Origin: a bacterium
Lineage (GTDB): Bacteria > J088 > JAWLBW01
Assembly (NCBI GenBank): GCA_041690355.1
Contig: JAWLHK010000021.1
Span: 1 to 64,000, forward strand
Length of the DNA: 64,000 nucleotides
Reading direction: 5' to 3'
Both the position numbers and the translations under genes were made by a program. Position 1 is the first letter of the stretch; every line of letters starts with the position of its first letter. Under the pieces are notes generated by a model. The model searched no databases and was not told where the DNA came from. It worked only from the letters and a program-made list of their open reading frames with translations. Of this stretch, positions 1,630 through 62,207 are shown one piece after another.

Positions 1630-3560
<1,931 letters not shown>

Positions 3561-3561
<1 letters not shown>

Positions 3562-3980
3562 CGATTTACGATTGACGATTGACGAGTTACAGACACGACG
3601 ACTCCGTGCCACTCGTCACTCGGACAAGCGCCGAGCGCCAAGCACTGAGCGCTGAGCAAACAAGAGACCGTGATGGCCGAGGCTCACCTGTGAAGTGCCC
3701 CCATCGGGGGAACCCTTGCTGCAAACGCATCCATGATGGCGGGGGAAAATTCCGTCACTCGTCACTGGACAAGCGCCGAGCGCCAGGCACTGAGCGCTGA
3801 GAAAACGAGCCAACAAGAACGTGGCGTTCCTTGCCCTTGCCGGAAAACTCGTCACTCGTCACGGGATTTGACGATTGACGATTTACGATTTTCAGGCACG
3901 ACGGTCACTCGACCAACGGTCCGGTCACTTGCCGGCAAATCGCAAATCGCAAATCGTAAATCGTAAATTGTAAATTGTAA
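3561..3980. repeat. Composite intergenic repeat element. Heptamer arrays (GACGATT x4 at the left; AAATCGC/AAATCGT/AAATTGT x7 at the right, in inverted orientation) flank two copies of a ~65-bp unit: ACTCGTCACTSG-GACAAGCGCCGAGCGCCARGCACTGAGCGCTGAG.AAAC.AG
   Basis: Read directly at 3565-3600, 3600-3665, 3755-3830 and 3856-3975. It sits between two convergent gene ends. Confidence 0.85.
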
Positions 3981-3981
3981 A

Positions 3982-4659
3982 TCAGGCTGCGCCCTGGTCG
4001 CGCAGGAAGCGGCGCAGCACCGCGGCCCCCTCGCCGTTGAAGCTCACGAACTTGAGCCCCACCTGGTAGCCGTCACCCGACTGCAGGATGCGCGTGACCT
4101 CGGCCTTGCAGATGACCGGCGCCGACTCTTCGCTGACCTGCATCTTGAGCCAGAGCGCGAAGCCCGCCTCGAAATCGCAGCTCGCCATGCGCATGCGCAT
4201 GCCCGTGGCGCTGATGTCGAGCGACTCGCCGCGCAGCTCGCCCGCGTTCGACGCCCCGTCGATCTTGATGCGGATGGGTACGCGCACCGCCTTGCGCAGG
4301 TTCGTATGGAGCAGCCCCGCGAGCAGCGCCTCGAGATCTTCGACCTTCACCGGCTTGGCGAGCACGTGATCGGCCCCGGCGCTGCGCGCCCGCTCGATCA
4401 TCCACTCGTCGTCTTCGACCAGCAGCACGAGCACCGTCCCCTTCGCCGCCGGATCGGCCTTGAGGTCCCGGGCGACTTCGTCGCCGGCGATGTCGGGGAG
4501 CGCGATGTCGAGCACGGCCACCTCGGGGTGATCGAAGCGCACCGCGTTGGCGGCGGCGATGGCCGAGGTCACGCCGCGCACCTGGAAGGTGCTGCGGGCA
4601 AGCAGGTTCTGACGTAACGCCGCGACGTCCGGGTCGATGGTGGCCAGCAGTATCTTCAA
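3982..4659 (-). CDS. Response regulator receiver fused to a PilZ (c-di-GMP binding) domain
   Basis: REC domain at the N-terminus (VLDIALPDIAGDE, KP). The C-terminus carries the PilZ motifs RKAVRVPIR and DISATG. The ATG overlaps the serB stop (ATGA). Confidence 0.75.
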   Translation of the reverse strand: MKILLATIDPDVAALRQNLLARSTFQVRGVTSAIAAANAVRFDHPEVAVLDIALPDIAGDEVARDLKADPAAKGTVLVLLVEDDEWMIERARSAGADHVLAKPVKVEDLEALLAGLLHTNLRKAVRVPIRIKIDGASNAGELRGESLDISATGMRMRMASCDFEAGFALWLKMQVSEESAPVICKAEVTRILQSGDGYQVGLKFVSFNGEGAAVLRRFLRDQGAA

Positions 4660-8320: not shown

Positions 8321-9994
<1,674 letters not shown>

Positions 9995-10014: not shown

Positions 10015-10056
10015 CTCGAAGCCCCGGGGGTCGCCCCCCGGGGCTTTTTTCGTTTC
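10015..10056 (+). terminator. Rho-independent terminator after groEL
   Basis: GC hairpin gccccgggggtcgccccccggggc followed by a T-run (ttttttcgttt). Confidence 0.85.
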
Positions 10057-23220: not shown

Positions 23221-23345
23221 GAAATTCGTCACTCGTCACGGGGTGAAGCGCCAAGCGCCAAGCGCTGAGCGCCAACGAGGCAAGGGCAAAGTGTTCCAAG
23301 GTTCTTGCCGAAAATCGTCAATCGAAAATCGTCAATCGTCAATTT
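23221..23345. repeat. Copy of the dispersed heptamer-array element: TCGTCAC x2, GCGCCAA/GCGCTGA array, then AATCGTC/AAATCGTC array
   Basis: aattcgtcactcgtcacggggtgaagcgccaagcgccaagcgctgagcgccaacgagg...aaaatcgtcaatcgaaaatcgtcaatcgtcaat. Confidence 0.8.
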
Positions 23346-27551: not shown

Positions 27552-27584
27552 GGAATTCCTGATTCCTGATTCTTGATTCCTGAG
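27552..27584. repeat. Heptamer tandem array TGATTCC/TGATTCT x4
   Basis: attcctgattcctgattcttgattcctga, immediately after the epimerase stop. Confidence 0.85.
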
Positions 27585-27687
27585 AAGCAAGGACGGGGAA
27601 CTCAGCCTCTTCAGACTCCGTTGCGGACTCGTCTTCGGACTCCTCTTCGGGTCCCCCTTCGGGGGACGACAGGGGGGCTTCCAGCGG

Positions 27688-30869: not shown

Positions 30870-31448
30870 ATGCAGGAAAAAACCGTACTCACCACCCCGA
30901 TGGAAGAGGCCGTGCGCACGATGCTCGTCGAAATCGGCGAGGATCCCGAACGGGACGGCCTGCTGCAGACCCCGTTGCGTGTCGCGCGTTCCATGCGCGA
31001 ACTCACGCAGGGGTACACGATGGATCTCGACGTCGTGCTCAACAAGGCCATCTTCGACGTCGACCATGACGAGATGGTCGTCGTGAAGGACATCGAGATG
31101 TACTCGCTGTGCGAGCACCACCTGCTCCCCTTCTTCGGCAAGGCGCACATCGCCTATCTGCCGAGCGGCAAGGTCGTGGGCCTCAGCAAGATTCCCCGTC
31201 TGGTCGACGTCTTCGCCCGCCGCCTGCAGGTGCAGGAGCGCCTGACGAACCAGATTGCCGAAACGATCGAGAACCTGCTCAAGCCGCGCGGCGTGGCCGT
31301 CGTCATCGAGGCCTCGCATCTCTGCATGCAGATGCGCGGCATCCAGAAGCAGAACTCGTCGGCCGTCACGAGCGCCATGCGGGGCGAGTTCCTCACGAAC
31401 ACGGATACGCGCCGCGAATTCCTCGAGCACATCCGCTCCCGAGTCTAG
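30870..31448 (+). CDS. folE: GTP cyclohydrolase I
   Basis: 192 aa. [16 protein letters not shown] and [13 protein letters not shown] motifs. RBS GAGGAAG upstream. Confidence 0.9.
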
Positions 31449-31515
31449 AGTCTAGAGTCCAGAGTCTAGAGTCCAGAGTCGAGAGTCTAGAGTCCAGAGT
31501 CTAGAGTCTAGAGTT
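31443..31515. repeat. Heptamer tandem array AGAGTCT/AGAGTCC, about 10 units
   Basis: gagtctagagtctagagtccagagtctagagtccagagtcgagagtctagagtccagagtctagagtctagagtt, starting inside the folE stop region. Confidence 0.9.
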
Positions 31516-31590
31516 CGAGCGTCTGATAGGACCGGATGAGTCAGAGCGAAGCGTCTGGCCGACGTCCGGCGTCCGACGTCCGAAGACCGG

Positions 31591-41714: not shown

Positions 41715-41775
41715 GGTCGAATCCCGACTTGTGACTTACGACTGACGACTTGTGACTGAAGACTAGTGACTGACG
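41715..41775. repeat. Heptamer tandem array TGACTTA/CGACTGA/CGACTTG/TGACTGA/AGACTAG...
   Basis: ttgtgacttacgactgacgacttgtgactgaagactagtgactgacgac. Confidence 0.85.
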
Positions 41776-43517
41776 ACGGGGAGCTCGAGCCAGCCTTCGC
41801 GCCCCGGTCCCGTCAGGACCGTCTGGTTCGCGATGCGCGACTCGGCGTGCGCGTACCAGGGGGCCGCCACGTTCGGATGCACGTTGTAGGCCGGGAAGTT
41901 CGACGAGCTGACGTCGACCCGCAGGCGGTGCCCCTTCTTCACGACCCACTCGGTGGGCCACGTCTGCAGCACCAGCGTGGCGTCGCTGTGCGGCGCGTAG
42001 GGCACCGGAACGCCGTCGCCGTTGCGGTAGGCGAGCGCCATGATCGTGTCGGTGATGTTCACGGCGCGGCCGTTCGCGTCGACGTCCATGATCTTGACCG
42101 TGAAGGCGGTGTCTTCGGCGTCGGAGCGCACCGTCAGGCGGATGTTGAAGCGGCCCGCGAGGTGCAGGTCTTCCCTGAGGTACAGCGAGGTGAACGTGAG
42201 CACGTCGTCGCGCTCGCAGAGGCCGATCTGATCGCGCATGGACGGCGGCGTGCCGCTCCACCCCGGAATCGCGAAGGCGAGCAGCCCCGCGCCGCCGCGG
42301 CTCGGCACCGGGTCGGCCGGATCGTAGACGTACGAAATCGAGTCCTCGCCCTCGGGCCGCGCCGCCGCGAGGCGCCCGCCGGTGCACGCCTGCGCCCGCG
42401 CCGTCTCGGCGAAATAGAGGCGCGCGGGCTTCGCCGCCGGAGGCCAGCTTTCGCGCCGCTGCCAGCCCCCGCCGATGGCGTAGGTCTCCACCGGGCCCCA
42501 GTCGTCGAGCGGTTCTCCCTTGAGGTGATGATCGAACCAGTTGAGAAACCGGTCCATCATCGCGTGGGCCCCCTTCTTGTCGGGGAGCGGGAGCACGCCG
42601 TCGCCGCTCCCCCCCATGAGATGGGTCCACGGGCCGACGATGAGCCGGCTGCGATCCCGCGTGGCCATGCGGTTGAAGTCGTCGAGCTGCGAGCCGACGA
42701 AGATGTCGTACCAGCCGCTCACCATGAGCACGGGCACGGTGACCTTCTCGGGCATGGCGCGCAGGAGCAGGTTGTCGGGAATCTTCCACAACGGCGCATC
42801 GGCCGACGCGCTCTGCAGCCAGTCGCGGTACCAGGGGAGCGAATGGCCGATGATCTTCTCGTCGGCTTCGAGATGCGGGCGGTGGGCGATGGTCTTCCAG
42901 AACGTATTGAAGTTCAGGGCGTCGAGGGTCTCGTCGTACATCAGCGAGGCCCAGGCCGTGGCCACCTCGAAGCGGAACATGCCGTGCGAGAACGCGACCT
43001 CGCGCAGGTCAGAGCCCCAGACCATGGGGATCATGGTCTTGACCTGCGGGGGAAACCGGTCGGCCATGGCCCACTGCACCATCGACAGGTACGAGGCGCC
43101 GAAGAGGCCGATGTTACCGTCGTGCCAGGGCTGTTTCGTAATCCACGCGAGCGTGTCGATGCCGTCATTGCGCTCGTTGAAGAAGGGCATCCACGTCCCC
43201 TCGGAGGTCGCGCGGCCGCGGGCGAGCTGGTAGACGCCGACGTAGCCGTAGCGCGAGAAGAGCTTGGCGAGCGCGCCGGCGCCCCCCACAAAGTTGTACG
43301 GGTTGCGGATGAGGATGACCGGCCACGGCCCCTCGCCTTCGGGCAGGTAGACTTCGGTGTACAGTTTCACGCCGTCGCGCATGGGCAGCATGAGCGTCGT
43401 GGCCTCGCCGGCCGCGGTCTCGAAGGGGGGCAGGTCGAGGGTCAGCCGCGCGGCATCGTAGCAGGCGGTCGAGAGAAACAGGCTTGCGAGAAGCGGCAGC
43501 AGGCGGGCCAGGCGCAT
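41763..43517 (-). CDS. CocE/NonD (S15, X-Pro dipeptidyl-peptidase-like) family hydrolase, lipoprotein
   Basis: Lipobox MRLARLLPLLASLFLSTAC. Alpha/beta hydrolase core (GASYLSMVQW) and the C-terminal beta-sandwich typical of S15/CocE. Internal ATG at 43517. Confidence 0.55.
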   Translation of the reverse strand: MRLARLLPLLASLFLSTACYDAARLTLDLPPFETAAGEATTLMLPMRDGVKLYTEVYLPEGEGPWPVILIRNPYNFVGGAGALAKLFSRYGYVGVYQLARGRATSEGTWMPFFNERNDGIDTLAWITKQPWHDGNIGLFGASYLSMVQWAMADRFPPQVKTMIPMVWGSDLREVAFSHGMFRFEVATAWASLMYDETLDALNFNTFWKTIAHRPHLEADEKIIGHSLPWYRDWLQSASADAPLWKIPDNLLLRAMPEKVTVPVLMVSGWYDIFVGSQLDDFNRMATRDRSRLIVGPWTHLMGGSGDGVLPLPDKKGAHAMMDRFLNWFDHHLKGEPLDDWGPVETYAIGGGWQRRESWPPAAKPARLYFAETARAQACTGGRLAAARPEGEDSISYVYDPADPVPSRGGAGLLAFAIPGWSGTPPSMRDQIGLCERDDVLTFTSLYLREDLHLAGRFNIRLTVRSDAEDTAFTVKIMDVDANGRAVNITDTIMALAYRNGDGVPVPYAPHSDATLVLQTWPTEWVVKKGHRLRVDVSSSNFPAYNVHPNVAAPWYAHAESRIANQTVLTGPGREGWLELPVVSH

Positions 43518-43611: not shown

Positions 43612-43700
43612 CCGGCTGGTCGCTGGACGCTGGGCGCTCGGCGCTGGGCAGGAACCACAGCAAGCAGGCCACTCGTCACTCGTTACTCGTAACTTCCCTG
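43612..43700. repeat. Heptamer arrays GCTGGNC x4 (reverse orientation of GCGCCRA) followed by ACTCGTC/ACTCGTT/ACTCGTA
   Basis: ggtcgctggacgctgggcgctcggcgctgggcagg...ccactcgtcactcgttactcgtaac in a divergent intergenic region. Confidence 0.8.
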
Positions 43701-44280: not shown

Positions 44281-44310
44281 AGCGCCGAGCGCTGAGCGCC
44301 GAGGAAGCAC
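44281..44310. repeat. Short GCGCCGA/GCGCTGA heptamer array copy
   Basis: agcgccgagcgctgagcgccgagg, directly after the yaeQ stop. Confidence 0.7.
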
Positions 44311-46664: not shown

Positions 46665-49600
46665 TCAGAAAACGGACACCAGTGTCACGTCGCTGGCCTC
46701 GAGACGACCGTTGAACCGATGCACTACTTTCAGCGACTTGCTCAGGAAGTCGTAGTAGCTGATGTACCCTCTATCCTCGCCGTCCAGAGCCAGAGCGGTG
46801 TCGGCCTGCACATAGGAGTCGCTATCGAGGATTGCCGTCACCCATCGGCCGCTCGCATTGGTGGCGTACTTCAAGTCATCGTCGGCCGACTCGATATAGC
46901 TGATGTGGATAGCGCCCCGCGAATCGACGACGATGGAGGTGTAGAGGCCATTGAATCCGAGGCTGTCTACGACGGCCACCGTCCAGATGCCACCCTGGTT
47001 CGTAGCGTACTTGAGCTGACTGCCGTCGTTTCCCCGGTAACTGATATGAACGGCTCCCTGGGCGTCGAGGGCGAGCGAAGAATACATGCCGGAGTTCGAG
47101 TCGACCGTGACGACAGACCATGTGCCGTCCGAATTCTGTGCGTATTTCAGACTGCTCGCGCTATAGAAACTGAGGTGGGCGACATCATTCGCATCAATCC
47201 CCAACGAAGGGCGGTTGTTCCACCACGACGCTACCGTCTCGACTTGCCAGAGGCCACCGGCCTGCCGGGCATACTTGACCTGCAGGTTCGTGCGATCGAC
47301 GTAGGCAATGTGAACGTCGCCGGCCGAGTCGAACGCCATCGAAGAAAATTCGCCCACGTCCCCCACGTCATCGACAGTTTCAATCTCCCAGAAGCCTGAC
47401 ACGTTCCTTGCGTATTTCAGGCTGGTGTTCGACGTGTCGTAGTAGGAAATGTGCGGATTGCCTCCCGCGTCCAAACGGAGCGACGTATGTTGTCCGACGC
47501 TGCCCGGCGAGTCGATGGTCGCAATCGACCATCCCTGCGTTGCCCCGGCAGGATAGCCTTCGGCGTACTTGAGGTCCTGCGCATCTTCATGGTAGTAGCT
47601 GACGTGGCTTCTCCCCTCTGCATCGACGGAGAGCGACGAGTATGTGCCGGCCCGGCCCGACAGGCTGAACCCGTCTACCGTTTCGGAATGAAGCGAGCTC
47701 TCGACCAGGACTACGTATTTCAGATATCGGTTGGTGGAATCCTGGTACGCGATATGCACGTCGCCGTACCGGGACACGGCCAATGAGGTGAAAAACCCGA
47801 CGCTTCCGGCAGAGTCGAGGGTCGAAACGCTGAATGAGCCGCCGGCATTCGTCGCGTACTTGAGATCCGCCCCCGCGGCCGTGTAGTAGCTGATGTGCAC
47901 ATGACCTTCGCCATCCAGGCCCAGCGACGAGTACCACCCGTTATTTCCGCCATCGACTTCGACCGAACTCCATCCGCCCCCCGCATTGGTTCCGTACCGG
48001 AGCCTGGGGCCGAAGACGCTGTAGCTGATGTGGATCTTATCCTGTGCATCGACCACGAGCGAGCTATGCTGCCCCACCAGCGAGCCGCTCTCGAGCGTAC
48101 TGACACTCCAGGTGCCGGCGGCCCGGTAAGCATACTTCAGACCGCCGTTCGTCACGTCGTAGTAACTGATATGGGGCTCGCCCGAAGAGTCGAGCGCGAT
48201 GGACGTATACCGGCCGACATCGGCGATCGTCGCGTCGACAGCTGTGGTCACCCACACGCCGCTTTCGATCGTCGCGTACTTCAGGTCACCGTTCGTCACG
48301 TCATAGTAGCTGACGTGAGGAATACCGGAGGCATCGACGGCGATATCCGTATACTGGCCGACGTTCTCAACCACGTTATCAACCGTCGTGGGCACCCAGC
48401 CCCCCGATTGATTGGTGGCATATTTCAGGTTGCCGTTGGTGGAATCGTAGTAGCTGATATGGCTCTTGCCCGTGTTGTCGACGGCAATCGAAGCGTACTT
48501 GCCGACCTGCCCGGCTTCGATATACGTCGTCTCCCATGCACCACCCGAATCGGTGCCGTACACCAGGCCGCCCGACAGATACTCGTGATAGGCCACGTGC
48601 GCGCCACCCACGGCATCCAGCCCGAGCGACATGAACTCGGGCATGTGGCTCGACGACGACTCGACCGCGATCCGTTCGCTGAGTCTAAGCGGCACGGTGC
48701 TCAACTGCACCAGTGAATTGTCCTGATTCGCCACCCTGAAGAGGAGTTTTTCATTGAAGCGCCGTGCACCGGGCGGCGTCCGTACCCATGACGTCGCGTT
48801 GGAGAGCAGCTGTTCGGTATGCGTCACGCCGGTTACGTCATCGTACTGGTATTCACCGACGATGCTGAACGTGCCCGTACCGACGAGAAAGTCGTACTGG
48901 GTGAGGCCGTCGGCGCGCCGCGTCCACGTGACGGTCGTTATCGGGCTGTTGGGCTGTGCGCTCGCGATGATCGACCAGTCTGATGCGTTGCCATAGGCAT
49001 CGATGGCCCGCGCGCGATAGTTATGCTTGAAGCCGGGCTGCGTGACACTGTCGACATAGGTCACCTGAGGGGGCACGAGAGAGGCCAGCAGCCCGAAATT
49101 CTGGTCCTTTCCGTTGACGAATCGCATGAGCTCGACTCGGCTCGCACCCGAAACCAGGCCCCAGCTCAGCTCTACCGTATTCGCACTCAGGGCAAACCCG
49201 TCGCCGTCGACGTCAATGACCTGCAAGGCAGGCGCGTTCGGCGGCGTCTGATCGAGAACGATGCTTCCGCTCGCCACCACTTCATTCCTTGCGCGGTCGC
49301 GTACCGCCATGAAGACGCTCTTCGTTCCATCCCCGTCGGGCAGGTACCAGTCGAATGACGACGCGATTGGCTCCCACGACGCGCCCGTGAAGCTGGCCAG
49401 GTTGCTGACCCGCATTTCAACGGCATCCGTCAGATCGACGCCGAGCACGGTCACGGTTACGGCCCGGCTCGCTGTCGTACCCGTGAGACCGTCGTGCCCC
49501 TGCAGGCTTACCGTAAAGGGATCAACCTGCGTATCCAAGGTGACCGTTCGCGCATAGCACGCGCTCTCGCTTCCAGCATCGTTCGCATACTGAACCGAGA

Positions 49601-52600
49601 TCGTCTTTTCTCCGTCGCCGCCGGACAGCGTCATGCTCCTTGTCGTCGTATACGCTTCGGGAACGAACGCGCAACCGCCCCCCTCTCCGACCTTGGCCTG
49701 GGTGGCGCCCGAAGAGCTGAGCTGCAGCGTAATCGCCGTGCTGTTGACCCATTCGCCCTCCAGAATCGTGAACCCACCGGCGATAGACGTCTGCGGAATA
49801 CTGGTGTCGAGCACAAGCGTGGCCTTGGTTACCGGACCGGCATTGCCGAGGGTGTCAAAGTAACGGAGGTAGACATCGTGAAAGCCGTCGTCGGCATTGA
49901 CGAGCGAATACGCAAAATCCGAAAGCGTGCATCCCATGACGGTGCCCGTCGGCGCGATAAAACCGAGGTCTTCGGAGAGTTCGGCGTAATCGCAGTCTGC
50001 GGCCAGCGTGCTGGAGGCGATCGTGAGGTTCGCCGTATTTGAATATCCTGGCTTGGCTTCTGCATTTCCGCGGACGGTAAAGATTCTGGGGGTCGGCCCC
50101 GTGCGATCAAGCGTGACCGCTGTTGCGTAACAATTTGCGCTCTCATTCAAGGCGCCGTCGCGGAAGCGGACGCTGATCCAGCTCTCGCCCTCGAGCGACG
50201 GAATGCTCCACAACGTCTGGGGCGACGCCTCAACCCAATTTCCCCCGGCACACGAGTCGCCATTGGAAATCTTCATGTGAGTCGTGTCGGCAGCATACGT
50301 GAGGTCGACCCCGACAAGCGTATCCTTGGTGCGCGAAACGCCGATCGAGACGGTTCCCGTCGGCCCCAGCGTATCATACGTAATCGTATCGAAGACCGGC
50401 GTCGACACGAGCCCGCCCTGGTCGACAGCCTGCAGCCATACGGTCTTCTGGCTTTCGAGACCCGGGCCGGTCGGTTCGGCAAGCGTCCAGATCTTCGTGG
50501 CCTCGTACGCCACGACATCCGTCGTCGCGAGCGCCGCCTCGGAGTTTGCAATACGTATGCCGGCGAGTCCGCTGCCGCCGTCGCTTGCCGACAGCGAAAG
50601 CGTCACCACGCTAGCGGATGTCCTGGCAGCGCCCTGATTGACGACGATGGCGCCGACTGGGTGCTGCGTATCGAGGATGATGGACTGGCTGAGTGCGACG
50701 CTTTCGTTACCCGCCGGATCGCGCAGTTGCAGATACACGGCTTTGGCGCCGTCCCCCACTGAAAGATCAAAACTGCGGGGAGACACGTGCGGCTCCCACC
50801 CCGACCCCTCGAAGTCGCTCCGTTCGCTGATGCGCATCTCGGCTTCCGGCTCATTGGTTCCGATGGTGAGCGTCACCGCTGTACTGCTGGTCGCGAAGCT
50901 CCCCCCATTGATGGCCAGGCTGTTATTGCCCGGGGCAATCGAATCGAATGTGATGCCGTCGGAGATAAAATTCGTGACCCAACCGGCCTCGTCCTGGAAC
51001 CGGGCGTAAACGGTCTTGGGCCCCTGCCCATTCGAGAGTACAAACGGCTTCGCAGCGGCGAATGGCTCCCAGCTCACGCCTGTGAAGCCGTTGTCCTCGC
51101 TGACCTGCATCAGTGACGCCCCCGTGGCAGTCAGGCTGAGCACGACCGTCTGCTCCCTTGTATACCCCTGACCGTTCGCGACGACGATACCCCCACCGGT
51201 CGGCGCTTCGCGGTCGAGAATGATCTCGTCACGGACGGCATCTTCCTCATTCCGTGCGGCATCGCGATACTTCACGTACACGGCCTTGATGCCATCCGTC
51301 CCGGGCAAGGGGTAACCCCTCTGGGTTGCAAACGGCTCCCAGGCGCCGAAGTTGACGCCATCGTCACTGAAACTCATCTCCGCAGCGCCGATCGCAGCCA
51401 GACTCAACGTAACCGTCGATGTTCGGGAATACTGGGCGCCATCATTGATCAGAATCTGCGGCGCCTCAGGCGCAATCCGGTCGATCTGTACCGTGTCGGC
51501 GACCGTCGCGCTCCAGTTTCCCGCCCCATCCTGAATTCTGGCATATAGGGTGCGTATGCCGTCCGGGCCCGAGAAGGTATAGGTTGTCACACCCGTCATC
51601 GCAAAGCGCACAGGATTCGAAAAGGCCGCGTTTTCGCTCAGTTCGGCCCAGCTTGCCCCCGTCGCCGTCAACGCGACGCTGACCGCCGCGTCGTTCGTCA
51701 ATTCCTCGCCGTCGGCCAGACTGATCGAGACGCCGGTCGGCCCCTGTGTATCAACGAACACCAGAAGCGGTCCGGCGTCGACGACGTGGCCGACGGCGTC
51801 ACGCACCTGGGCGTAGATGAGTCGATTCTCACCGGCGGGGTCGCTCGCCGCCGGTACCTCCCAGGCACGGGTCGGGCTGTAGGTTTCCCAGGCCGCGCCC
51901 GTGTACCCGGCATTGTTCGAAAGGCGCATTTGGAGCGGGCTCACCGCATCCTCGGCCTCCAGGCGCAAGCGGATCGTGGTGGTGTTTATCGTCGTAACGG
52001 GGTTACCCAGAGAGTCTTCGGCGCGGAAGAAATTCACCGCCGGGGGATTCAGGTCAACGATGATCGAATCGCTCACGGCCGTACCGAAGTTGCCCGCCCG
52101 ATCGCCGAATTTCACGTAGATCGTTCTGGGGCCCTCGCCCCCCGTAAACGGATGGACAAGCCCGGTCTGGTATGCCTGCGGCACCGCTCCCGAAAAATCA
52201 TTCGACTCCGAGAGCATCATCCACTGTACGCCGCTCGTATCGTCTATGGCCGAGAGTTGAAGCGCGAGATTGCTCGAGGCGACATAGTCGGCGCCGTTAT
52301 GAATCACGACCGAACCATATCCCGGCCCGGTACGATCCAGCACATACGAGTCGCTGACCGGTATCGTCTCCAGACCGCTCGTCTTACGGAACTTGGCGTA
52401 CAGGACCTTCGTGCCGTCGGGGCCGCTGAAGGAGACCGTTCTGGTCGGCGCGACGGCCTCCCAGGTCGCGCCCGAGAAATACGGGGCGGTCGAAAGCATC
52501 ATCTCGTCGACGTACGCCGCCCCCAGATTCACCTGCACCGTCGTGGCCGACGTGACCGAAGCCTGAATGTCGACGTACGGGGACGAAGGGACCTTCGTAT

Positions 52601-54152
52601 CGAGCGTGATGGTCTGCTCGGCAAGCTCCAGGAAGTTGCCTGCGTCGTCGGCAACCCGCGCGAAGAGACGCTTCGGACCGTCGCCCGGCGACAGCAGGAA
52701 CGACTTCGCCGGGGCGTAGGAGAGCCAGGGCGTTCCATCGAACGCGCTGTCTTCGCTCACCATCAGCCGCGTGGCGCCCGAGACGTTGAAAGAGAGGGTC
52801 ACCAGCGTCGAACTCGTGGCCGCGCTGCCGCCGTTGACGAGGAACGGACTGCTCCCGGGTACGGGAGCCTGGGTATCGACTGTAACCGCCAGAGTGTACA
52901 TCGCGCTTGGGTTACCGGCTGCATCGCGTACCCAGAGGTAGCGTATGTAAGCGCCGTCACTGCCCAAGGGTACCTGCAGCGTCGGCTGAAACGGCAGCGT
53001 CGCGGCCGTCGCCAGGTCGCTCGTCCCCCCCAGGCGGATATCGGCGACGCCCGACCCGGGGTCGACGGCGGCGAGATTCACGAGCACATAATCGCGCGTA
53101 ACCGAACCATTGTTGAAGAGCGGCATCACGACCACCGGCGACGGCGGGGTTGCGTCGTAGAAGATACTTTTCGTGAGCAGCCGCGAGCGGTCGCCGTTCG
53201 CACCGATGTAGGCGACGCAAACCGTCTTCAAGCCTTCGTCAGTCCCGAGCGACCAGATCTTCTCCGCCTGATAGGGCTCGGGATCGTCCAGTACGCATCC
53301 GGCGGCAGTACCGTCGCTCGACGAACCGATCTGCATCGTTTCGGCGTTGATGCCGGTCAGCTCCAGGTTGACCTGCGCCGTGGCCGTAAAGCGTTCGTCC
53401 GGGGCGCCATCAAACCGCGAACCAATGACGCCGAACAGGCCGGTGACCGGACTCAGCACCACCGGCTCGAGAACGACCCGCCCGCTACCGGTCACCTGTA
53501 CGTTCGAAATCGTCACGCCCGGCAGCCCGGCACCCGCGGCCACCAGGTCGTAGACCCCCGCCGGAACGTCCGAGAACCGGTACGAGCCGTCATCGCCCGA
53601 CACTGTCTGCATCTCGACGGTCGCCGCTTGCGTAACGTCTGCGGCGGCGGGCGCATACCGCGGCGAAGAAGCCGCGGCCGAGCGGATGGAGCCCGTTTTA
53701 CGCAGTGTGAGCGATGCGCCCCCTGAGCTCACCCGTTCGTCCTGTTCGACCCGTTCAATCAGGGCCGACCCCAGAACATCGGCGCGTAACGCCCGCAGGG
53801 TGACCGGGCCGACCGCGACGTCCTCACCGATGCCGACGGTGATCGTCTGCGTGGCCGGCTCGAAATAGCGCGTGCGCATGCTGAGCCGGTAGGTGCCCGG
53901 CACGACCCCCGTCAGCTTCGCAACGCCCTGTGCGTCGGTATCGACACTGTAGGTTCGATCGCCATTCTGAACCTCGACCGTAATCTGTGCGTGATCCGAT
54001 TCTCCCTCGAGGGCCACGCGCGCATCCAGCGTCGCTCTGGCTTGCTTTTCGTCGGGTGATTTCGGGTCGAAAGGACCTTCGTGCGGAAGTTCCGTAGAGC
54101 ACGCGGCGAGGCCAAATGCCAGCACCAGGCAAAGTGAACGAGTTCGGACCAT
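46665..54152 (-). CDS. Giant (2495-aa) surface lipoprotein. N-terminal carboxypeptidase-regulatory-like domains, a long series of Ig-like/Big-like domains, and about 16 C-terminal ~45-aa beta-propeller-type repeats (consensus G.Y.SIAVD..G..HISYYD..N..LKYA)
   Basis: Lipobox MVRTRSLCLVLAFGLAAC and RBS GGAGGGG. CarbopepD-reg-like segments (TYRLSMRTRYFEPATQTITV). Repeated segments ...HISYYDSTNGNLKYATNQSGGWV..., ...HVSYYDVTNGDLKYATIESGVWV... and so on through the C-terminal 800 aa. Confidence 0.85.
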   Translation of the reverse strand: MVRTRSLCLVLAFGLAACSTELPHEGPFDPKSPDEKQARATLDARVALEGESDHAQITVEVQNGDRTYSVDTDAQGVAKLTGVVPGTYRLSMRTRYFEPATQTITVGIGEDVAVGPVTLRALRADVLGSALIERVEQDERVSSGGASLTLRKTGSIRSAAASSPRYAPAAADVTQAATVEMQTVSGDDGSYRFSDVPAGVYDLVAAGAGLPGVTISNVQVTGSGRVVLEPVVLSPVTGLFGVIGSRFDGAPDERFTATAQVNLELTGINAETMQIGSSSDGTAAGCVLDDPEPYQAEKIWSLGTDEGLKTVCVAYIGANGDRSRLLTKSIFYDATPPSPVVVMPLFNNGSVTRDYVLVNLAAVDPGSGVADIRLGGTSDLATAATLPFQPTLQVPLGSDGAYIRYLWVRDAAGNPSAMYTLAVTVDTQAPVPGSSPFLVNGGSAATSSTLVTLSFNVSGATRLMVSEDSAFDGTPWLSYAPAKSFLLSPGDGPKRLFARVADDAGNFLELAEQTITLDTKVPSSPYVDIQASVTSATTVQVNLGAAYVDEMMLSTAPYFSGATWEAVAPTRTVSFSGPDGTKVLYAKFRKTSGLETIPVSDSYVLDRTGPGYGSVVIHNGADYVASSNLALQLSAIDDTSGVQWMMLSESNDFSGAVPQAYQTGLVHPFTGGEGPRTIYVKFGDRAGNFGTAVSDSIIVDLNPPAVNFFRAEDSLGNPVTTINTTTIRLRLEAEDAVSPLQMRLSNNAGYTGAAWETYSPTRAWEVPAASDPAGENRLIYAQVRDAVGHVVDAGPLLVFVDTQGPTGVSISLADGEELTNDAAVSVALTATGASWAELSENAAFSNPVRFAMTGVTTYTFSGPDGIRTLYARIQDGAGNWSATVADTVQIDRIAPEAPQILINDGAQYSRTSTVTLSLAAIGAAEMSFSDDGVNFGAWEPFATQRGYPLPGTDGIKAVYVKYRDAARNEEDAVRDEIILDREAPTGGGIVVANGQGYTREQTVVLSLTATGASLMQVSEDNGFTGVSWEPFAAAKPFVLSNGQGPKTVYARFQDEAGWVTNFISDGITFDSIAPGNNSLAINGGSFATSSTAVTLTIGTNEPEAEMRISERSDFEGSGWEPHVSPRSFDLSVGDGAKAVYLQLRDPAGNESVALSQSIILDTQHPVGAIVVNQGAARTSASVVTLSLSASDGGSGLAGIRIANSEAALATTDVVAYEATKIWTLAEPTGPGLESQKTVWLQAVDQGGLVSTPVFDTITYDTLGPTGTVSIGVSRTKDTLVGVDLTYAADTTHMKISNGDSCAGGNWVEASPQTLWSIPSLEGESWISVRFRDGALNESANCYATAVTLDRTGPTPRIFTVRGNAEAKPGYSNTANLTIASSTLAADCDYAELSEDLGFIAPTGTVMGCTLSDFAYSLVNADDGFHDVYLRYFDTLGNAGPVTKATLVLDTSIPQTSIAGGFTILEGEWVNSTAITLQLSSSGATQAKVGEGGGCAFVPEAYTTTRSMTLSGGDGEKTISVQYANDAGSESACYARTVTLDTQVDPFTVSLQGHDGLTGTTASRAVTVTVLGVDLTDAVEMRVSNLASFTGASWEPIASSFDWYLPDGDGTKSVFMAVRDRARNEVVASGSIVLDQTPPNAPALQVIDVDGDGFALSANTVELSWGLVSGASRVELMRFVNGKDQNFGLLASLVPPQVTYVDSVTQPGFKHNYRARAIDAYGNASDWSIIASAQPNSPITTVTWTRRADGLTQYDFLVGTGTFSIVGEYQYDDVTGVTHTEQLLSNATSWVRTPPGARRFNEKLLFRVANQDNSLVQLSTVPLRLSERIAVESSSSHMPEFMSLGLDAVGGAHVAYHEYLSGGLVYGTDSGGAWETTYIEAGQVGKYASIAVDNTGKSHISYYDSTNGNLKYATNQSGGWVPTTVDNVVENVGQYTDIAVDASGIPHVSYYDVTNGDLKYATIESGVWVTTAVDATIADVGRYTSIALDSSGEPHISYYDVTNGGLKYAYRAAGTWSVSTLESGSLVGQHSSLVVDAQDKIHISYSVFGPRLRYGTNAGGGWSSVEVDGGNNGWYSSLGLDGEGHVHISYYTAAGADLKYATNAGGSFSVSTLDSAGSVGFFTSLAVSRYGDVHIAYQDSTNRYLKYVVLVESSLHSETVDGFSLSGRAGTYSSLSVDAEGRSHVSYYHEDAQDLKYAEGYPAGATQGWSIATIDSPGSVGQHTSLRLDAGGNPHISYYDTSNTSLKYARNVSGFWEIETVDDVGDVGEFSSMAFDSAGDVHIAYVDRTNLQVKYARQAGGLWQVETVASWWNNRPSLGIDANDVAHLSFYSASSLKYAQNSDGTWSVVTVDSNSGMYSSLALDAQGAVHISYRGNDGSQLKYATNQGGIWTVAVVDSLGFNGLYTSIVVDSRGAIHISYIESADDDLKYATNASGRWVTAILDSDSYVQADTALALDGEDRGYISYYDFLSKSLKVVHRFNGRLEASDVTLVSVF

Positions 54153-55215: not shown

Positions 55216-58200
55216 TTACCGGTAGAGCATGGCGCTCTGCAGCAGGCCCATTCCGTAGCCGCCCGCGATGAGCACGCTGCCGTCGGGCAGCGGGGTCGCC
55301 GTGTGAACGTACCGCCCCGATCCCAACGTGCCCGTGGGCCCGAAGACGCCCCCCACCGGGTCATACAGCTCGGCGGCCCAGAGCGGGGCGCCGTTAATCC
55401 CGCCCGCGATGAGCACCTTGCCGCTGGGCAGCAAGGTCGCCGTGTGTATGTAGCGCGCCGTGCCTAGCGCACCCGTGGCCATGAACGTCTCCGTGACCGG
55501 ATCGTACAGCTCGGCGCTTGCCAGGGTGCCGTTCGCCGTGTCGTACCCGCCGGCGAAGAGCACCTTGCCGGTGGGCAGCATCGTCGCCGTGTGCACGTAG
55601 CGCGACATCACGAGGGAGCCGGTGGGAGTGAAGACGCCGGTCGCCGGGTCGTACAGCTCCGCGCTTGCCAACGCCGCGGCGCCGAAGCCGCCTGCGATGA
55701 GCACGAGCCCATTGGGCAGCAGCGTCGCCGTATGGTAATACCGCGCGGTCGCCATCGAGCCCGTGGCCGCGAAGGTTCCCGCGCTCGGGTAGTACAGCTC
55801 GGCGCTCGCCAAGACGGCGCCGCCGTCGCTGCCGCCGGTGAGGAGCACATTGCCGTTGGGCAACAGCGTGGCCGTGTGGTACTTTCGCGCCGCGACCATG
55901 GCGCCGGTGGTCACGAAGGTACTCGTGGCCGGATCATACAACTCGGCGCTCGCCGCCCCGTCGATTCCGCCGGCGATGAGTACTTCGCCGTTGGGCAGCA
56001 AGGTCGCCGTATGGTTTTGCCGGGCCGCCCCCATGGAGTTCGTCGTCGCGAAGGTTCCCGCGCTCGGATCGTACAGCTCGGCGCCCGCCATGGCGGCTCC
56101 GTCGTAGCCGCCCGCCATGAGCACCAAACCGTTGGGTAGCAAGGTCGAACTGTGATCGTATCGTCCGGCGACCAAGCCGCCCGTCTCCAGAAACGTGCCC
56201 GGCGCCGGCATGTCGGGATCGTACAACTCGACGCCCGCCAAGAGACCGGCCATATCCTGGCCCCCCGCAATGAGTACCTTACCGTTGTCCAGAAGGGTTG
56301 CCGTATGAAAAAAACGGGCGTCGGCCAAGAACCAGGCGCCATGGAATGCGCCCGTTTCCGGATCGTAAATCTCGGCGCCCGCCGTGGCGGCGCTTGCGAA
56401 ATAATCGGCGCCCCCCGCCATGAGCACCCTGCCGTTGGGTAGCAAGGTCGCCGTATGAAATGCACGGACCGCAGCCATGGAGCCCGTGGGCGTGAATACG
56501 CCCGTGGCAGGATCGTAGATCTCCGAGGTCGCGAAGGAGATGTAGCCATAGCCCACGTCATAGCCCCAGCCCCCCGCAACGAGCACTTTGCCGTTGGGCA
56601 GCAGGGTCGCCGTGTGATGGGCACGCGCCGTGCTCATCGATCCCGTGGGCGTAAATGTGCCCGTCGCCGGATCGTACAGTTCGGCGCTCGCAATGAAGGT
56701 CCAGCCGGCGTCGTCAACATAGCCTCCTGAAATGAGCACCTTGCCGTTGGGCAGCAGCGTCGCCCTGGGAACTTGGCGCGCCGTGCCCATCAAACCCGTG
56801 GGCGTGAATACGCCCGTCTCCGGATCGTACAGTTCGGCGCTCGCAAGGGGCACCCAAGAATAGCCCCCCGCAACGAGCACCTTACCGTTGGGCAGCAAAA
56901 TTGCCGTGTGCTCTTCCCGAGCGCTACCCATGGAACCCGTGGGCGTGAAGGTGCCGGTCGTCGGATTGTACAGCTCGGCGCTCGCGCCCCCCCCAGAGCC
57001 CCCCGTGATGAGCACTTTGCCGTCGGGCAGCAGGGTCGCGGTGTGATTGATCCGCGCCGCGCCCATGGAACCCGTGGGCGTGAAAGTGTCGGTCGTTGGA
57101 TCGTACAGTTCCGCGCTTGCGAGGGCGGCGTTTCCGGAGTCCTGACCGCCGGCAAGGAGCATGAGACCGTTGGGTAGCAGGGTCGCCGTATGGTAGAGCC
57201 GTGCCGTGCCTGGGGAACCCGTGGGCGAAAAGGTGCCTGTGCCCGGCTCGTACAGCTCTGCCGAGGGGTCACTTAAGACGGCGCTCATGTCGGCGCCCCC
57301 CGTGATGAGCATCCATCCGTTGGGCAACAGGGTCGCCGTGTGGCCACCACGGCCGACGGCGAAAGACAAAGCGGGGATGAACCCGCCCCAATCCGCCTCG
57401 TACAGCTCGGCGCTTGCCAAGGCGGTGCCTCCGATGGAGTACCCCCCCGCGATGAGCACGCCACCATTGGGCAACAGGGTCGCCGTGTGATACATGCGCG
57501 CCGCGCCCATCGAACCCGTGGGCGCAAAGGTGCCGGCGTCCGGATCGTACAGCTCGGCGCTCGCCAAGATGGCGGCGCCGTCAAAGCCCCCCGCAACGAG
57601 CACTTTGCCGTTGGGCAGCAGGGTCGCCGTGTGAAGGGCACGCGCCGCGCCCATCGAACCCGTGGGCGTAAATGTGCCGGCGCCCGGGTCGTACAGCTCG
57701 GCGCTCGCCAAATAGCCGGCGCCTGTATTATGGCTACCCGCGATGAGTACCTTGCCGTCGGCAAGCAGGGTCGCCGTGTGGCCATACCGCGCCGCGCCCA
57801 TCGAACCCGTGGGCGCAAAGGTGCCGGTTCCCGGATCGTACAGCTCGGCGCTCGCCAGATAGTTGGACGTGCTCGGTGTATAGCCCCCCACGATGAGTAG
57901 GAGACCGTTGGGCAGCAGGGTCGCCGTGTGATCCTGCCGGCCCGTGCTCATCGAACCCGTGGGCGTGAAGGTGCCGGTGCCCGGATCGTACAGCTCGGCG
58001 CTCGCGCCCCCCCCAGTGCCCCCTGCGACGAGCACCTTACCGTTGGGCAACAGGGTCGCGGTGTGATTGCCCCGCGCCGCGCCCATGGAACCCGTGGGCG
58101 TGAAAGTGTCGGTCGTTGGATCGTACAGTTCCGCGCTTGCGAGGGCGGCGCTTCCGGAGCCCAGACCGCCGGCGAGGAGCACCTTGCCGTTGGGCAGCGG

Positions 58201-60864
58201 GGTCGCCGTATGGTTGTACCGTCCCGTGCCTAGAGAGCTCCGGGTCGACGCCGGGATCGTCTTGGCGCTCCACGCGGTCGGCCCGCTTGCGTAACCATCG
58301 GTCGGCGTCACGACTACCTTCCAGGTATCACCGGCCGTTAGCAATGCCTTGACGACGCCCATGGTCGCAGCGGCGAAGCTCTGATCGACGCCGTTCTTGA
58401 ACCACTGGTAGGTATACGTGACGGTGTCGATCGGGTCGGCGTCGGTGGAGGCCATCGAGAAGGCCACGAAGAGGTCGTCGCCGGCGGTATAGGCCTGGGG
58501 CTCGAGCGTGATGCTCGGCTGGGTTGGCACGCTGTTCTGAACGACGACGACGTTCGAATCCAGCGCGTTACCGTTGTCGGCGCCGTCGAAAGGCACGATC
58601 CGCAAGAAGACCGCGTCGCCGTGGGCGAAGGCGGCCCCCGTGAGCGTCGCGGCCGTGATGCCGCTCGCGGCGCTGTTCACGTACCACATGCGCTGATAGG
58701 TCACCGTGTCGCCGTCGTCGTCGTGGCTCGCGGAAGTAAACGCGAACGTCGAGGTCTCGTAGGCGGTCAAGGGCGTGATGCTCACCGAATCCATGACCGG
58801 CAGGCGGTTCTGAATCGTGACCACCGGCGCCGTCACGAAGCCGCTGTAGGCGGCCCCGTCGAAGGCGCGGGCCGCGACGGTGACCGTGTCGCCCCGCGCG
58901 TAGCCGGTGTTGATGCTCGCCGTGCTCGCGACGGCGACTCCATTCACGAACCAGCGGTACTCGGCCGACGGTACGTCGCCCGTGTCGGCGTCGCCGACGC
59001 CGAGCGCCGCCGCCGTGAGCGTGCTGGTGTTGTAGAAGGGGCCGCTGCCGAAGCCGACCGAGGAGATCGTCGGCGGCGTGTTGACGATGGCCACTGCATT
59101 CGAGCTCACGGCCAACCCGTAGGCTGCGCCGTCATAGGGCGTGACGAGCACGTAGACCGTGTCGCCCTTTGTGAGTAAGGCGCCCGAGAGCAAAGCGCCT
59201 GTCTCGCCCACGGCCGGCACCCCCGCGACGTACCACTGGTACGTGAGCACCGGCGCGTCGGCGGGGTCGGCGTCGGCGAGGCCGGTGTACCCGTCTACGT
59301 AGAACGTGGCGTCGATACCGTAGGCCGGCGAGCCGAGCGACGTGATCGTAGCCGAAGCGAGCGCCGGCGCGCTGTTTAGGATGGTGACGGTATTCGAGTC
59401 CAGGGGCGTGCCGGCTTGGGTACCGTCCCAAGGCGTGATCCGCAGATAGACCGTGTCGCCATGTTCGAAATTCGCGCCCGTCAGCGTCGTGCCGGTCACG
59501 CCGTTGGCCGAGCCGTTGACGTACCACATGCGCTGATAGGCCACCGTGTCGCCGTCGTCGTCGCTGCTCGTGGCCGTGAAATTGAACGTCGACGTTTCGT
59601 AGGCGGTCAAGGGCGTGATGCTCAGCGAATCCATGACCGGCAGGCGGTTCTGAATCGTGACCGCCGGCGCCGTGACGTAGCCGCTATAGGCCGCGCCGTC
59701 GTAGGCGCGGGCCGCGACCGTAACCGTGTCGCCCTTGGCGTAGCCGCTGCTGATACTCGCGGTGCTCGCGACGAGCAAGCCGTTGACGAACCAGCGGTAC
59801 ACCGCCGAGGGCGCGTCGCTCGCATCGGGGTCGGCGACGCCGAGCGCGCCCGCCGTGAGCGTGCTCGTATTGTAGAAGGGCCCGCTGCCGAAACTTACGG
59901 ATGTGATCGTCGGCGCGCTGTTCAGAATCGTGATCGTGGCGGCATACAGCGGCGCGCTCGTGGCCTCGCCGTCGCTCGCTGTGACGGCGAGGGCGATCTC
60001 GTCGTTCTTTGCGTAGGCCGTATTGGCGATTGTTGCCATCGTGGACGCGGGCACGCCGTTCACATACCACTGAAAGCCGAAGGTGAGGCCGTCGCCGTCG
60101 GCGTCGGTCGCGCTCGGCGTGGCCGTGATGGCGGTCGTCAACTCGGAGTACGGCGCCACGCCGCTCAGCGTGACGCTCGTCATGACCGGCGCGCTGTTGC
60201 CGATCGTGACGGTCGCCGACGCGACGATTTCGCTCTCGTCGATGCCGTCGTCGTAGGTGACGCGAACGACGACCTGGTCGCCTTTGTCGAAGGCGGCGCC
60301 GTCGAGGGTCTGGAACGTTGCGCCGGCACCCTTGCGCACCGACGCGCCGTTCACGTGCCAGTCGTAGGTCATGTTCGCCGGCTTGAGCGGATTGTCGGCC
60401 GGGTCGGCGTCTACGGCTGCGACGGTCGCCGTGAGGGTGCTCGTTTCGAGGTAGGGTCCGGCCGAGAGGTCGACGCGCTCGACCACCGGCGCGGCGTTGT
60501 CGATTGTCACGACCTTGCTCCAGGTCGGAGCGCCGGCGGTGTCGCCGTCCCACGGTACGACCTCGGTCTGCACCGTGTCGCCGCGGCTGAAGTCGTCGCC
60601 GGTCAGCTCGTCAGCGGTCACGCCGGCGTCCTTGCCGTTCACGTACCAGGCGTAGCGGTAGCTCGGTTCGGCGCCGCTCGGCGTCGACCCTCCCTGCGGG
60701 GTGGCCGTGATGGTCGTGTTCTCGTCGTAGGGGCCGGCGCTCAGCGCCACGCGCTCGAGGCTGGGAGCGGTGGGGAGCGGCCCGGGCTGCTTCGAATCGG
60801 TCTCGGAACACCCTGCGGCCGCCAAGAGGGCGGCGGCCAAGACGCTGATTTTTGCGAACTGCAT
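55216..60864 (-). CDS. Giant (about 1880-aa) Kelch-repeat lipoprotein. About 12 N-terminal ~100-aa Ig-like repeats (Y.WYVNG...) are followed by about 28 Kelch/galactose-oxidase-type beta-propeller blades
   Basis: Lipobox [19 protein letters not shown] and RBS AAGGAG. Blades of the form [16 protein letters not shown]...[20 protein letters not shown] are repeated throughout the C-terminal 1100 aa. Confidence 0.85.
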
Positions 60865-61774
60865 CGGTGCTCCTTCTCTTGGAAAGCCCCGTGAGTCACA
60901 CACGTGCGAGATGGAGCACCTTCGGCACGATCCGTGAAAGCCCCATGGACCGCCGACACGGGGGACCGACGAACCTCCGATATCTTATAGGAGGCGCCAT
61001 TGTACTGCAACTTGTTATGGTGGCCCTTTTTGGAGATCGCGATGTGCCGGTTGGCCAGGGAGTATCTACTGGCCTGTGCCAGGATGCGGGGGCAGGCAAG
61101 CCTAACGGTTTGCCAACCAGGGGCGCGCCTTTCTGCACATCATATCAAGTGCGCGCCCGCTATGCGCGTCCCCCTGCGTTGGCGTGTTAGCAGCTGGGGA
61201 GCCTGACCTACTTAGGACCGCACAAAAACTTGTTAAGGTCATGGACGTAGATGATGGAACTGTATACCTAAAAAATGCCGAAGATTGCGAATCCAACACT
61301 GAGCAAGATATTCTCGATTCGATTGTATTTCGCTCGGAATGCGGAGCTAAGGCTTGTTGCAATAAGTATTGCCACGTGCCATAGCTAAAGCCGACGGAAA
61401 CGCGACCAACGTCACTACATCCACGTATTCCAAAACGACAAAAGGCTTTTTCCGAGCTATTGTGACAAGCACAAAAGCAGAATAGAGAGAGCCAAAAACG
61501 CAACGTAAAGTCGTTTTATCCACATAGGCGTTGAAGGTGCAACGTTTTAGGTATGAGGGCAGCCTTTCAAAGGTTCGGGACAACGCTGTCGGCGGCTAAC
61601 ATCTACTGAACGGCTCGTCGCCGTCTTACATCCCGGCTTCGCGCCTGCCCAACGAGCGACAGCAAGTGTCCAGGAGGCCGGATTTGCTGGGCCCGGGGCA
61701 CAAGCGCGCGGGGCGTTAGGCGGCGCCAATGCTGAACACTATACCGAGCGGGCCGCCTGGCGCGCAATTGGAAG

Positions 61775-61830
61775 CGGGGGCGCGCCAAGCGCCGAGCGCC
61801 AAGCGCTGAGCGCCAACGAAACAAGAGCCA
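61775..61830. repeat. Copy of the GCGCCRA/GCGCTGA heptamer-array element with an AAACAAGAG tail
   Basis: gcgccaagcgccgagcgccaagcgctgagcgccaacgaaacaagagcca. Confidence 0.8.
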
Positions 61831-62120: not shown

Positions 62121-62207
62121 CCACGAAAACGCCGTCATCCCGACGACCAAAGCGGCGAGGGAGCTGAAGCCTCGCACCCCACCTCGAGAGGACGTGCGGT
62201 CCGTGGG

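Follow-up and report, generated by a model that had tools for sequence, protein, structure and literature searches.

In most bacterial genomes, no class of long simple repeats is more abundant than the heptanucleotides, for which an origin by polymerase slippage has been proposed (Mrazek, 2007, as cited in PMC4679880 and PMC4692102). In Xanthomonas, 186 GGGAATC arrays have been described, of which 89-93% are intergenic and which lie on average 28 nt past the upstream open reading frame (ORF) (Rehm et al., 2015, PMC4692102). They include about 70 convergent inverted pairs and vary between species at the same sites, and no function was found for them (PMC4692102). TAACTGA repeats are distributed patchily across Beggiatoaceae, Cyanobacteria, and Bacteroidetes, and protein-bound post-transcriptional control has been proposed for those of the Beggiatoaceae (MacGregor, 2015, PMC4679880). 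Short tandemly repeated repetitive (STRR) heptamers are known from Calothrix PCC 7601, as cited in PMC4692102. Here, we analyze a 420-bp gap between two convergent genes (3562-3981) in a 64,000-nt stretch of contig JAWLHK010000021.1 from an uncultured bacterium; this whole stretch is referred to as the window. The gap belongs to the intergenic heptanucleotide repeats, a class already described but unexplained in function, and is not a miniature inverted-repeat transposable element (MITE), which an earlier note on this DNA had thought it to resemble.

Arrays were called with Tandem Repeats Finder (TRF), coordinates are those of the window, and chance expectations derive from dinucleotide-preserving shuffles of the window. 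Nearly all of the gap is built from two heptamer families: family 1, ATTKACG (equivalent to GACGATT), with the reverse complement AATCGTC and its variant ACTCGTC, and family 2, AGCGCYR, which is near self-complementary. TRF detects period 7 with 4.1, 3.3, and 6.7 copies at 90-93% matches. Three motif patterns are matched 4-5 times each compared to 0.00-0.06 in shuffles; the family-1 pattern accounts for 5 matches (0.00 expected) and a 28-nt AGCGCYR pattern for 4 matches in the window (0 expected).

At each of the two convergent genes, the stop codon lies inside the first unit of a sense-oriented (ATTKRCR)n array, which is followed by a shorter inverted copy. The left array (3557..3587, + strand; TRF x4.1 at 3557-3585, 90% matches) reads in the sense of an ABC-F family ATPase gene and consists of ATTGACG units with ATTTACG in second place and a final AGT. 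The ABC-F stop codon TGA (3559-3561) is located in its first ATTGACG unit, and the gene end reads ...AAT TGA CGA TTT ACG... The inverted family-1 variant ACTCGTC ACTCG (reverse complement of GACGAGT) at 3611..3622 (+ strand) pairs with 3576-3587, and the arms of this 3' hairpin (about 3573-3588 and 3611-3622; repeat I11) are 12 nt long, 92% complementary, and separated by a 23-nt gap. On the other side, a family-1 array at 3934..3983 (- strand; TRF AAATCGT x6.7 at 3937-3983, 92% matches) takes in the TGA stop codon (3982-3984) of a response-regulator/PilZ gene with its first unit. In the sense of that gene, the array runs TGATTTA, CAATTTA twice, CGATTTA, and CGATTTG three times; the gene end is TGA TTTACAA TTTACAA TTTACGA... 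A further family-1 array, TTGACGA x3.3 at 3867..3893 (+ strand; TRF span 3868-3890), forms the 3' arm of the corresponding hairpin in the - strand reading. Here, 3868-3891 pairs with 3944-3967, and the inverted repeat covers 24 nt with 88% complementarity to 3944-3974 (repeats I4/I5). The predicted fold of 3862-3990 on the - strand has -43.3 kcal/mol and z = -4.2, with 0/200 shuffles as stable, and the whole gap folded on the - strand reaches z = -4.9.

The space between these two modules contains two copies of a composite unit, which comprises (ACTCGTC)2, then (AGCGCYR)4, and then a tail such as GAGMAAACRAG. The core of copy 1 (3625..3665, + strand; direct repeat D1, alignment A1) is AGCGCYR x4 with the tail GAGCAAACAAGA, and TRF places AGCGCCG x4.4 at 3627-3657. 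Copy 2 (3752..3810, + strand, aligned to copy 1) contains CGTCACT x2, AGCGCYR x4, and the tail GAGAAAACGAG. Both copies share 93% identity over 43 nt (3622-3664 and 3767-3809) and 81-88% over 57-68 nt. They are separated by a non-repeated spacer (3666..3751) with a short GC hairpin, CCCCC ATC GGGGG, at about 3691-3703 and no Rfam family above its threshold. Downstream of copy 2, ACTCGTC x2.3 (3846..3863, + strand; TRF span 3847-3862, 100% matches) is another inverted family-1 variant and a direct repeat of 3752-3768 (D4). The AGCGCYR array itself folds weakly (z = -0.8 to -1.1).

Much of what the earlier note described is confirmed by this anatomy. Its GACGATT x4 array on the left and AAATCGC/AAATCGT/AAATTGT x7 array on the right correspond to the TRF arrays of 4.1 and 6.7 copies, and the right array is indeed of the reverse-complement type: the outer arrays are mutually 78-82% complementary over 28-40 nt (repeats I1-I3), and the ATTTACG variant, the reverse complement of the right-array unit, occurs once in the left array. 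Two middle copies of about 85% identity were likewise recovered, as was a construction from 7-bp modules with inverted arrays able to fold back. Other parts need amendment. The repeats were assigned to 3561-3980 and in fact span 3557-3983, taking in both stop codons. The inventory of arrays lacked the TTGACGA x3.3 array at 3867-3893 and the three ACTCGTC doublets (3611-3622, 3752-3768, and 3846-3863), which are family 1 reversed. The middle element of about 65 bp is duplicated as described, but is not unitary, since it is built of ACTCGTC x2 and AGCGCYR x4. Finally, the outer arrays do not bracket a single element, because each has its own nearer inverted partner; they look inverted since two sense-oriented 3' modules of converging genes face each other. 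The gap is hence two gene-proximal modules with two composite units between them, and the proposed MITE-like element is not supported.

The earlier note also claimed the absence of an ORF, which holds in a loose sense. Mechanically called ORFs of 67-79 aa do span the gap, but G or C occupies their third codon positions at a frequency of 0.51-0.72 compared to 0.89-0.92 in the flanking genes, and the three ORFs lying inside the gap have no Pfam match; a hidden small gene was rejected on these two grounds. Rfam yields no family at gathering score across the whole window, with E = 0.83 for the top-scoring candidate in 3400-4100. A canonical intrinsic terminator, defined as a GC stem-loop with a T-run, is rejected as the identity of the gap as none is present in 3400-4150 (0 sites, 0.9 expected in shuffles).

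The locus fits the heptanucleotide-repeat class in every feature testable. Like Xanthomonas GGGAATC and Nostoc GGGGAYT, it carries tandem 7-nt units in about 4 copies that are intergenic, with the same unit at many loci, are located nearer to the upstream ORF end, frequently form convergent inverted pairs, and vary in length and sequence at the same intergenic sites of related genomes. In contrast to both, the units found here (ATTKACG, AGCGCYR, GAGTCTA, and others) contain no G-tracts, and thus the G-quadruplex explanation is inapplicable. Moreover, several unrelated units coexist in one genome, and a composite module that combines two of the families occurs repeatedly. The STRR sequences of cyanobacteria share with this locus several heptamer units per genome, dispersal in non-coding DNA, and lineage-specific units, but the present genome belongs to another phylum (uncultured, about 65% GC), and its units appear to be unrelated. 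The patchy spread of TAACTGA resembles that of ATTKACG arrays, which occur in contigs of 32-68% GC. TAACTGA is one heptamer with 2-6 repeats at well over a hundred intergenic sites (PMC4679880); unlike the arrays here, most of which closely follow stop codons and which often form inverted pairs, it is mostly found just upstream of starts, with 1 indirect repeat in 170 sets (PMC4679880). A literature search with the array sequences as strings gave no match.

Short hairpin-forming intergenic repeats behind or between convergent genes, arranged in mosaics, are also a feature of repetitive extragenic palindromic (REP) sequences, bacterial interspersed mosaic elements (BIMEs), and REP doublets forming hairpins (REPINs). 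A REP is one imperfect palindrome, 20-40 nt long and with a conserved 5' GTAG, that is mobilized by a REP-associated tyrosine transposase (RAYT), and REPINs are inverted doublets of them. The arrays here differ in being tandem 7-nt repeats without a GTAG head; no GTAG-headed palindrome is visible in the gap sequence, and no transposase-like or Y1-transposase protein turned up in a scan that covered part of the window proteins.

Period-7 repeats are about tenfold enriched in the intergenic DNA of the window. Heptamer self-matches at lag 7 amount to 26 per kb in intergenic and 2.8 per kb in coding DNA, while intergenic self-matches at lags not divisible by 7 amount to 2-6.6 per kb. At least eight different heptamer units coexist in the 64 kb, among them ATTCCTG, GAGTCTA x10.6, CCGACGT, GACTKRY, and GCTGGGC (TRF). 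ATTKACG-type arrays are found in two intergenic regions (3557-3983 and 23309-23343) and AGCGCYR arrays at 3626, 3771, 23246, 44281, and 61787, with an inverted one at 43615. The composite module recurs at 23224..23344 (+ strand; TRF, alignment A2) as TTCGTCACTCGTCAC, AAGCGCC x4, a hairpin spacer of about 43 nt, and (AATCGTC)n. The copy at 23222-23285 is 71% identical to that at 3750-3815, and short matches run on into the non-repeat spacer. AGCGCCG x3.3 (44281..44303, + strand; TRF) begins 1 base past the stop codon of a YaeQ-family gene (Pfam YaeQ), and AGCGCYR x4 with the same tail (AACGAAACAAGAGCC) lies at 61782..61830 (+ strand; pattern match, alignment A1) in a gene-free stretch of 1.3 kb. 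This stretch (60904-62207), in which the one AGCGCYR array copy covers 61782-61816, has no convincing gene, the lowest GC of the window (0.56), and no Rfam match. A second copy of the whole 3557-3983 arrangement was not found elsewhere in the window, and most heptamer arrays in the window are single, without an inverted partner.

Six window arrays lie -9 to +11 nt from a stop codon (3557, 3983, 27554, 31440, 41725-41777, and 44281). The longest array of the window, GAGTCTA x10.6 at 31441-31514, provides the TAG stop codon of a GTP cyclohydrolase I gene (folE) and is followed by CCGACGT x3.6 at 31559-31583. Where an epimerase gene and a guanylate kinase gene converge (27554-27687), ATTCCTG x4 begins 4 nt past the stop codon; the gap between them also contains the period-12 repeat TCTTCGGACTCG x3.6 and the hairpin GTCCCCC-TTCG-GGGGGAC. 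The divergent promoter region 43615-43694 upstream of the YaeQ-family gene carries GCTGGNC x5 and CACTCGT x3.6, and heptamer arrays are therefore not limited to 3' ends.

ATTKACG arrays are not confined to this genome. The earlier note had held that occurrence at this gap alone would argue against a dispersed element; the modules recur in the window, and ATTKACG arrays occur in metagenome contigs as well. A search with the pattern GACGATTKACGATTKACGATT matched at least 120 metagenome contigs and 41 viral contigs, many of the latter being mutually related. GC ranges from 0.32 to 0.68 among the matches listed and from 41 to 67% in the pair-bearing contigs inspected. The order (ATTGACG)n, spacer of 5-177 nt, (CGTCAAT)n occurs in 42 of 161 contigs among the matches listed, and the reverse order in 4. 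Spacers share neither sequence nor a fixed length, and the copy numbers of the arms differ freely. For most of these pairs, the predicted stems have -27 to -83 kcal/mol. In the fetched loci, adjacent ORF 3' ends are found -24 to +13 nt from the array in 53 of 87 cases, and 41 of 53 stop-abutting arrays have GACGATT on their sense strand; several arrays in the metagenome loci adjoin ORF 5' ends. Across the fetched loci (L005-L210) and the window, the G-richer arm of adjacent inverted pairs with any unit is 5' on both strands in 67 cases and 3' in 8, and the same order prevails among pairs unrelated to family 1 (28 vs. 6). For the 28-nt AGCGCYR pattern, there was no match in the metagenomes and one match among species-representative genomes. 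This sole public-genome match (L001) is an intergenic AAGCGCC x3 / GAGCGCT x3 array at 4408-4452 of JAYUSD010000193.1, a Variovorax metagenome-assembled genome and thus from an unrelated betaproteobacterium. A group of related IMG/VR contigs (L131, L133, L144, L147, L150, L157, and L160-L162) carries TTTAGGG/CCCTAAA heptamer arrays beside GACGATT arrays at several sites; this is the plant-type telomere unit.

Comparison with relatives shows how such sites change. Among the contigs available, the nearest are syntenic and have an ABC-F protein identity of about 62%. Behind the response-regulator/PilZ stop codon, one of them carries ATCTGGG x6.6 (L003) and another CCTCTAG/CCGCCAG x13 (L004), and in both cases the array units recur behind the RNase PH gene of the same contig, while arrays are absent from L002, which is more distantly related. 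A contig from the same assembly as L003 (L212) is syntenic to 25.7-35.1 kb of the window at 70-78% nucleotide identity. The window carries (ATTCCTG)4 after the epimerase gene and (GAGTCTA)10.6 after folE, whereas L212 lacks arrays at both sites and has ordinary GC hairpins instead, namely an 11-bp GC hairpin after folE and a classic A-tract/hairpin/T-tract bidirectional terminator in the epimerase/guanylate kinase gap. The different units at a syntenic spot and the empty sites in L212 imply that gain, loss, and replacement of arrays all occur over such evolutionary distances. With the small number of sites compared, the array position shared behind the response-regulator/PilZ gene could be a coincidence. 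At the array-free sites of the relative, the hairpin begins as little as 5-20 nt past the stop codon, and an array born in such a neutral stretch would come to lie beside the stop codon without any targeting. A protein initially considered to mark a near-identical strain (P0143) was rejected as such because it stems from another organism, in which the FolE domain is duplicated. In a JGI metagenome contig (L211, 1703-2614), we observed a 303-aa GTP cyclohydrolase I with two tandem catalytic domains; at the nucleotide level, each of the two is 73-74% identical to the window's folE, which is single.

The best explanation of the locus, which we hold with moderate confidence, is a repeat mosaic produced by slippage and fold-back duplication with a possible role as a 3' hairpin. 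In this scheme, arrays would be seeded in the few unconstrained bases just behind a stop codon and slipped-strand mispairing, in register with the 7-nt unit, would extend and homogenize them. Fold-back (template-switch) duplication would give rise to the inverted partners, after which the arms would drift separately. In favor of this reading are the period-7 excess in intergenic DNA, the closeness of arrays to stop codons, their turnover among relatives, the recurrence of the same layout in other contigs, the stability of the predicted - strand folds, and hairpin-plus-T-run terminators not being enriched in the window. Loci elsewhere provide candidates for both stages. Near-perfect ATTKCGG palindromes with loops of 4-10 nt (L075 712-782 and 1209-1279; L088 1958-2034) have the appearance of recent fold-back duplications, as one arm repeats the G/T unit variants of the other in exact mirror order, and the arms of L041 were homogenized separately (ATTGTCG x4 vs. 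ATTGACG x3). Transcribed as a 3' untranslated region, the two arms may fold to a long imperfect stem-loop, which could serve as a REP-like barrier at the RNA 3' end or as a terminator/insulator in both directions. This possible hairpin function is the weakest link, and we hold it with less confidence than the statement as a whole.

Several observations weigh against this explanation. The predicted ABC-F hairpin (3552-3630) reaches -20.4 kcal/mol with z = -1.4, which is not significant. The sense and antisense folding energies of pairs do not differ (9 vs. 9), and in ATTKACG pairs, the unit variants of one arm do not significantly mirror those of the other (mean z = 0.18). Among five near-identical contig pairs (97-99%; none of the source genome), arrays are unchanged in four and show a 15-nt indel in one, which is a poor fit to rapid slippage; the idea of hypervariable arrays was rejected on these grounds. 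Furthermore, slippage alone explains neither a unit family common to many loci and unrelated contigs nor the rule that the G-richer arm comes 5' (67 of 75 G/C-biased inverted pairs). Two other accounts of the arrays were rejected: RNA-level selection through an energy asymmetry of G-U wobbles, given the same 9 vs. 9 result, and an array orientation that provides stops in all three frames, for which ATTKACG gives a weak signal (37 vs. 18) and the remaining units show no significant one (17 vs. 10).

Alternatively, the inverted arrays might be selected RNA 3' stem-loops acting in both directions as terminators, insulators, or mRNA stabilizers that replace canonical terminators of hairpin plus U-tract; the heptamers would then merely be the means by which the stems grow. 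This would agree with arrays immediately after stop codons, with the very stable predicted stems (-43 here), and with hairpin-plus-T-run terminators not being enriched in the window, in the first 40 kb of which the only convincing canonical one, a 13-bp GC stem with a T-run, is at 10018-10047. The 547-aa gene before that terminator (8351..9994) probably encodes GroEL, judging from the GGCGGCATG (Gly-Gly-Met) repeats at its 3' end. The ordinary GC hairpins of L212 at two syntenic array sites point in the same direction, as does the transcription of most Xanthomonas heptamer repeats (PMC4692102). Inverted pairs are symmetric and read alike from both sides and would thus suit convergent genes. 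However, neither strand asymmetry in folding energy nor compensatory mirroring was observed, many arrays have no inverted partner, some are located upstream of genes (43615-43694) or beside 5' ends, and Rehm et al. saw no regulatory effect of the Xanthomonas repeats (PMC4692102). We regard selection for stem-loops as unlikely, even though it survives best among the alternatives.

A bolder proposal, less probable still, is that (ATTKACG)n-spacer-(CGTMAAT)n represents a widespread undescribed class of stop-proximal palindromic pairs with the G-richer arm 5'. Such pairs would serve in transcription or RNA processing as a signal that works in either direction, or would be traces left by a new kind of foldback element, with lineages swapping the unit and keeping the position. 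Three permuted control heptamers form arrays in 18, 4, and 23 viral contigs compared to 41 for ATTKACG, some of them as inverted pairs. ATTKACG is thus common, and neither unique nor exceptional, and its candidacy as a unique unit was rejected.

A non-autonomous foldback or MITE-like mobile element, whose heptamer-array ends would be repeated transposase-binding sites and which would spread within and between genomes, is improbable and ranks below the proposals above. Eukaryotic foldback (FB) elements have ends of short tandem repeats, a variable loop, and no coding capacity, and the inverted ends seen here resemble both these and MITEs. Mobility would account for modules that are dispersed in the window, for the same ATTKACG inverted pair across a wide range of contig GC, for the strongly fixed arm order (42 vs. 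4), for composite copies whose short matches extend into the spacer (3750-3815 and 23222-23285, 71% identical), and for arrays in the window where L212 has none. Yet target-site duplication, fixed length, and a conserved interior are all missing. No flanking direct repeat is apparent by eye here, and direct repeats of at least 5 nt around 40 ATTKACG pairs are not in excess (2 observed vs. about 7 with mismatched partners). As to terminal inverted repeats, the outer arrays are complementary to the degree given above, but their ends are unfixed and nearer partners exist; both overlap stop codons and belong to separate gene-proximal modules. Moreover, the sequence between arrays (5-177 nt in the ATTKACG pairs) is unconserved among loci, arm copy numbers vary, relatives have different heptamers at the same spot, and most other arrays in the window have no inverted partner. 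The permuted heptamers are likewise arrayed in viral contigs, partly as inverted pairs, and nothing transposase-like is among the window proteins scanned, which are part of the total.

Highly improbable, finally, are binding-site arrays for a protein with a 7-nt footprint (cold-shock-domain, S1, or KH on RNA) that would exert post-transcriptional control: one unit family reused at many loci while relatives use others would fit a genome-specific factor, cold-shock domains contact about 6-7 nt, and the variable position of ATT[G/T]ACG is common to many unrelated contigs (a biased observation, as the search pattern allowed G/T), but a single binder is difficult to reconcile with at least eight units in the 64-kb window, the analysis yielded no candidate protein, and the arrays are absent at syntenic sites of a relative with no visible consequence. 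S1, Csp, and CsrA-like candidates are listed by MacGregor (2015, PMC4679880).

The ABC-F family ATPase gene (1630..3561, + strand) encodes 643 aa with two ABC_tran, an ABC_tran_Xtn, and an ABC_tran_CTD domain (Pfam), and its translation is 100% identical to a 643-aa database protein (P0023). The response-regulator receiver and PilZ gene (3982..4659, - strand) encodes 225 aa (Pfam Response_reg and PilZ) and is also matched by a database protein at 100% identity (P0001). Matches with a named organism are 50-68% identical and come from Desulfuromonas, Vicinamibacterales, and Acidimicrobiia. Elsewhere in the window, two giant adjacent genes are located on the - strand: 46665-54152 encodes 2495 aa with CarboxypepD_reg, Big_13, and BNR domains, and 55216-60903 encodes 1895 aa of Kelch repeats, seen by TRF as DNA repeats of 141-153 nt.

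To our knowledge, the reason for the 7-nt unit and the function of heptamer arrays are still unexplained after about 35 years. The locus described here adds an example outside the G-quadruplex type from an uncultured high-GC lineage. It also points to three regularities: arrays at or near stop codons, the G-richer arm first, and unrelated units at the same site in relatives. For annotation, such regions should be labeled as repeat mosaics and not as MITEs. If the regularities are true genome-wide, they would help to decide whether such arrays are debris of slippage, RNA structures at 3' ends, or a mobile element.

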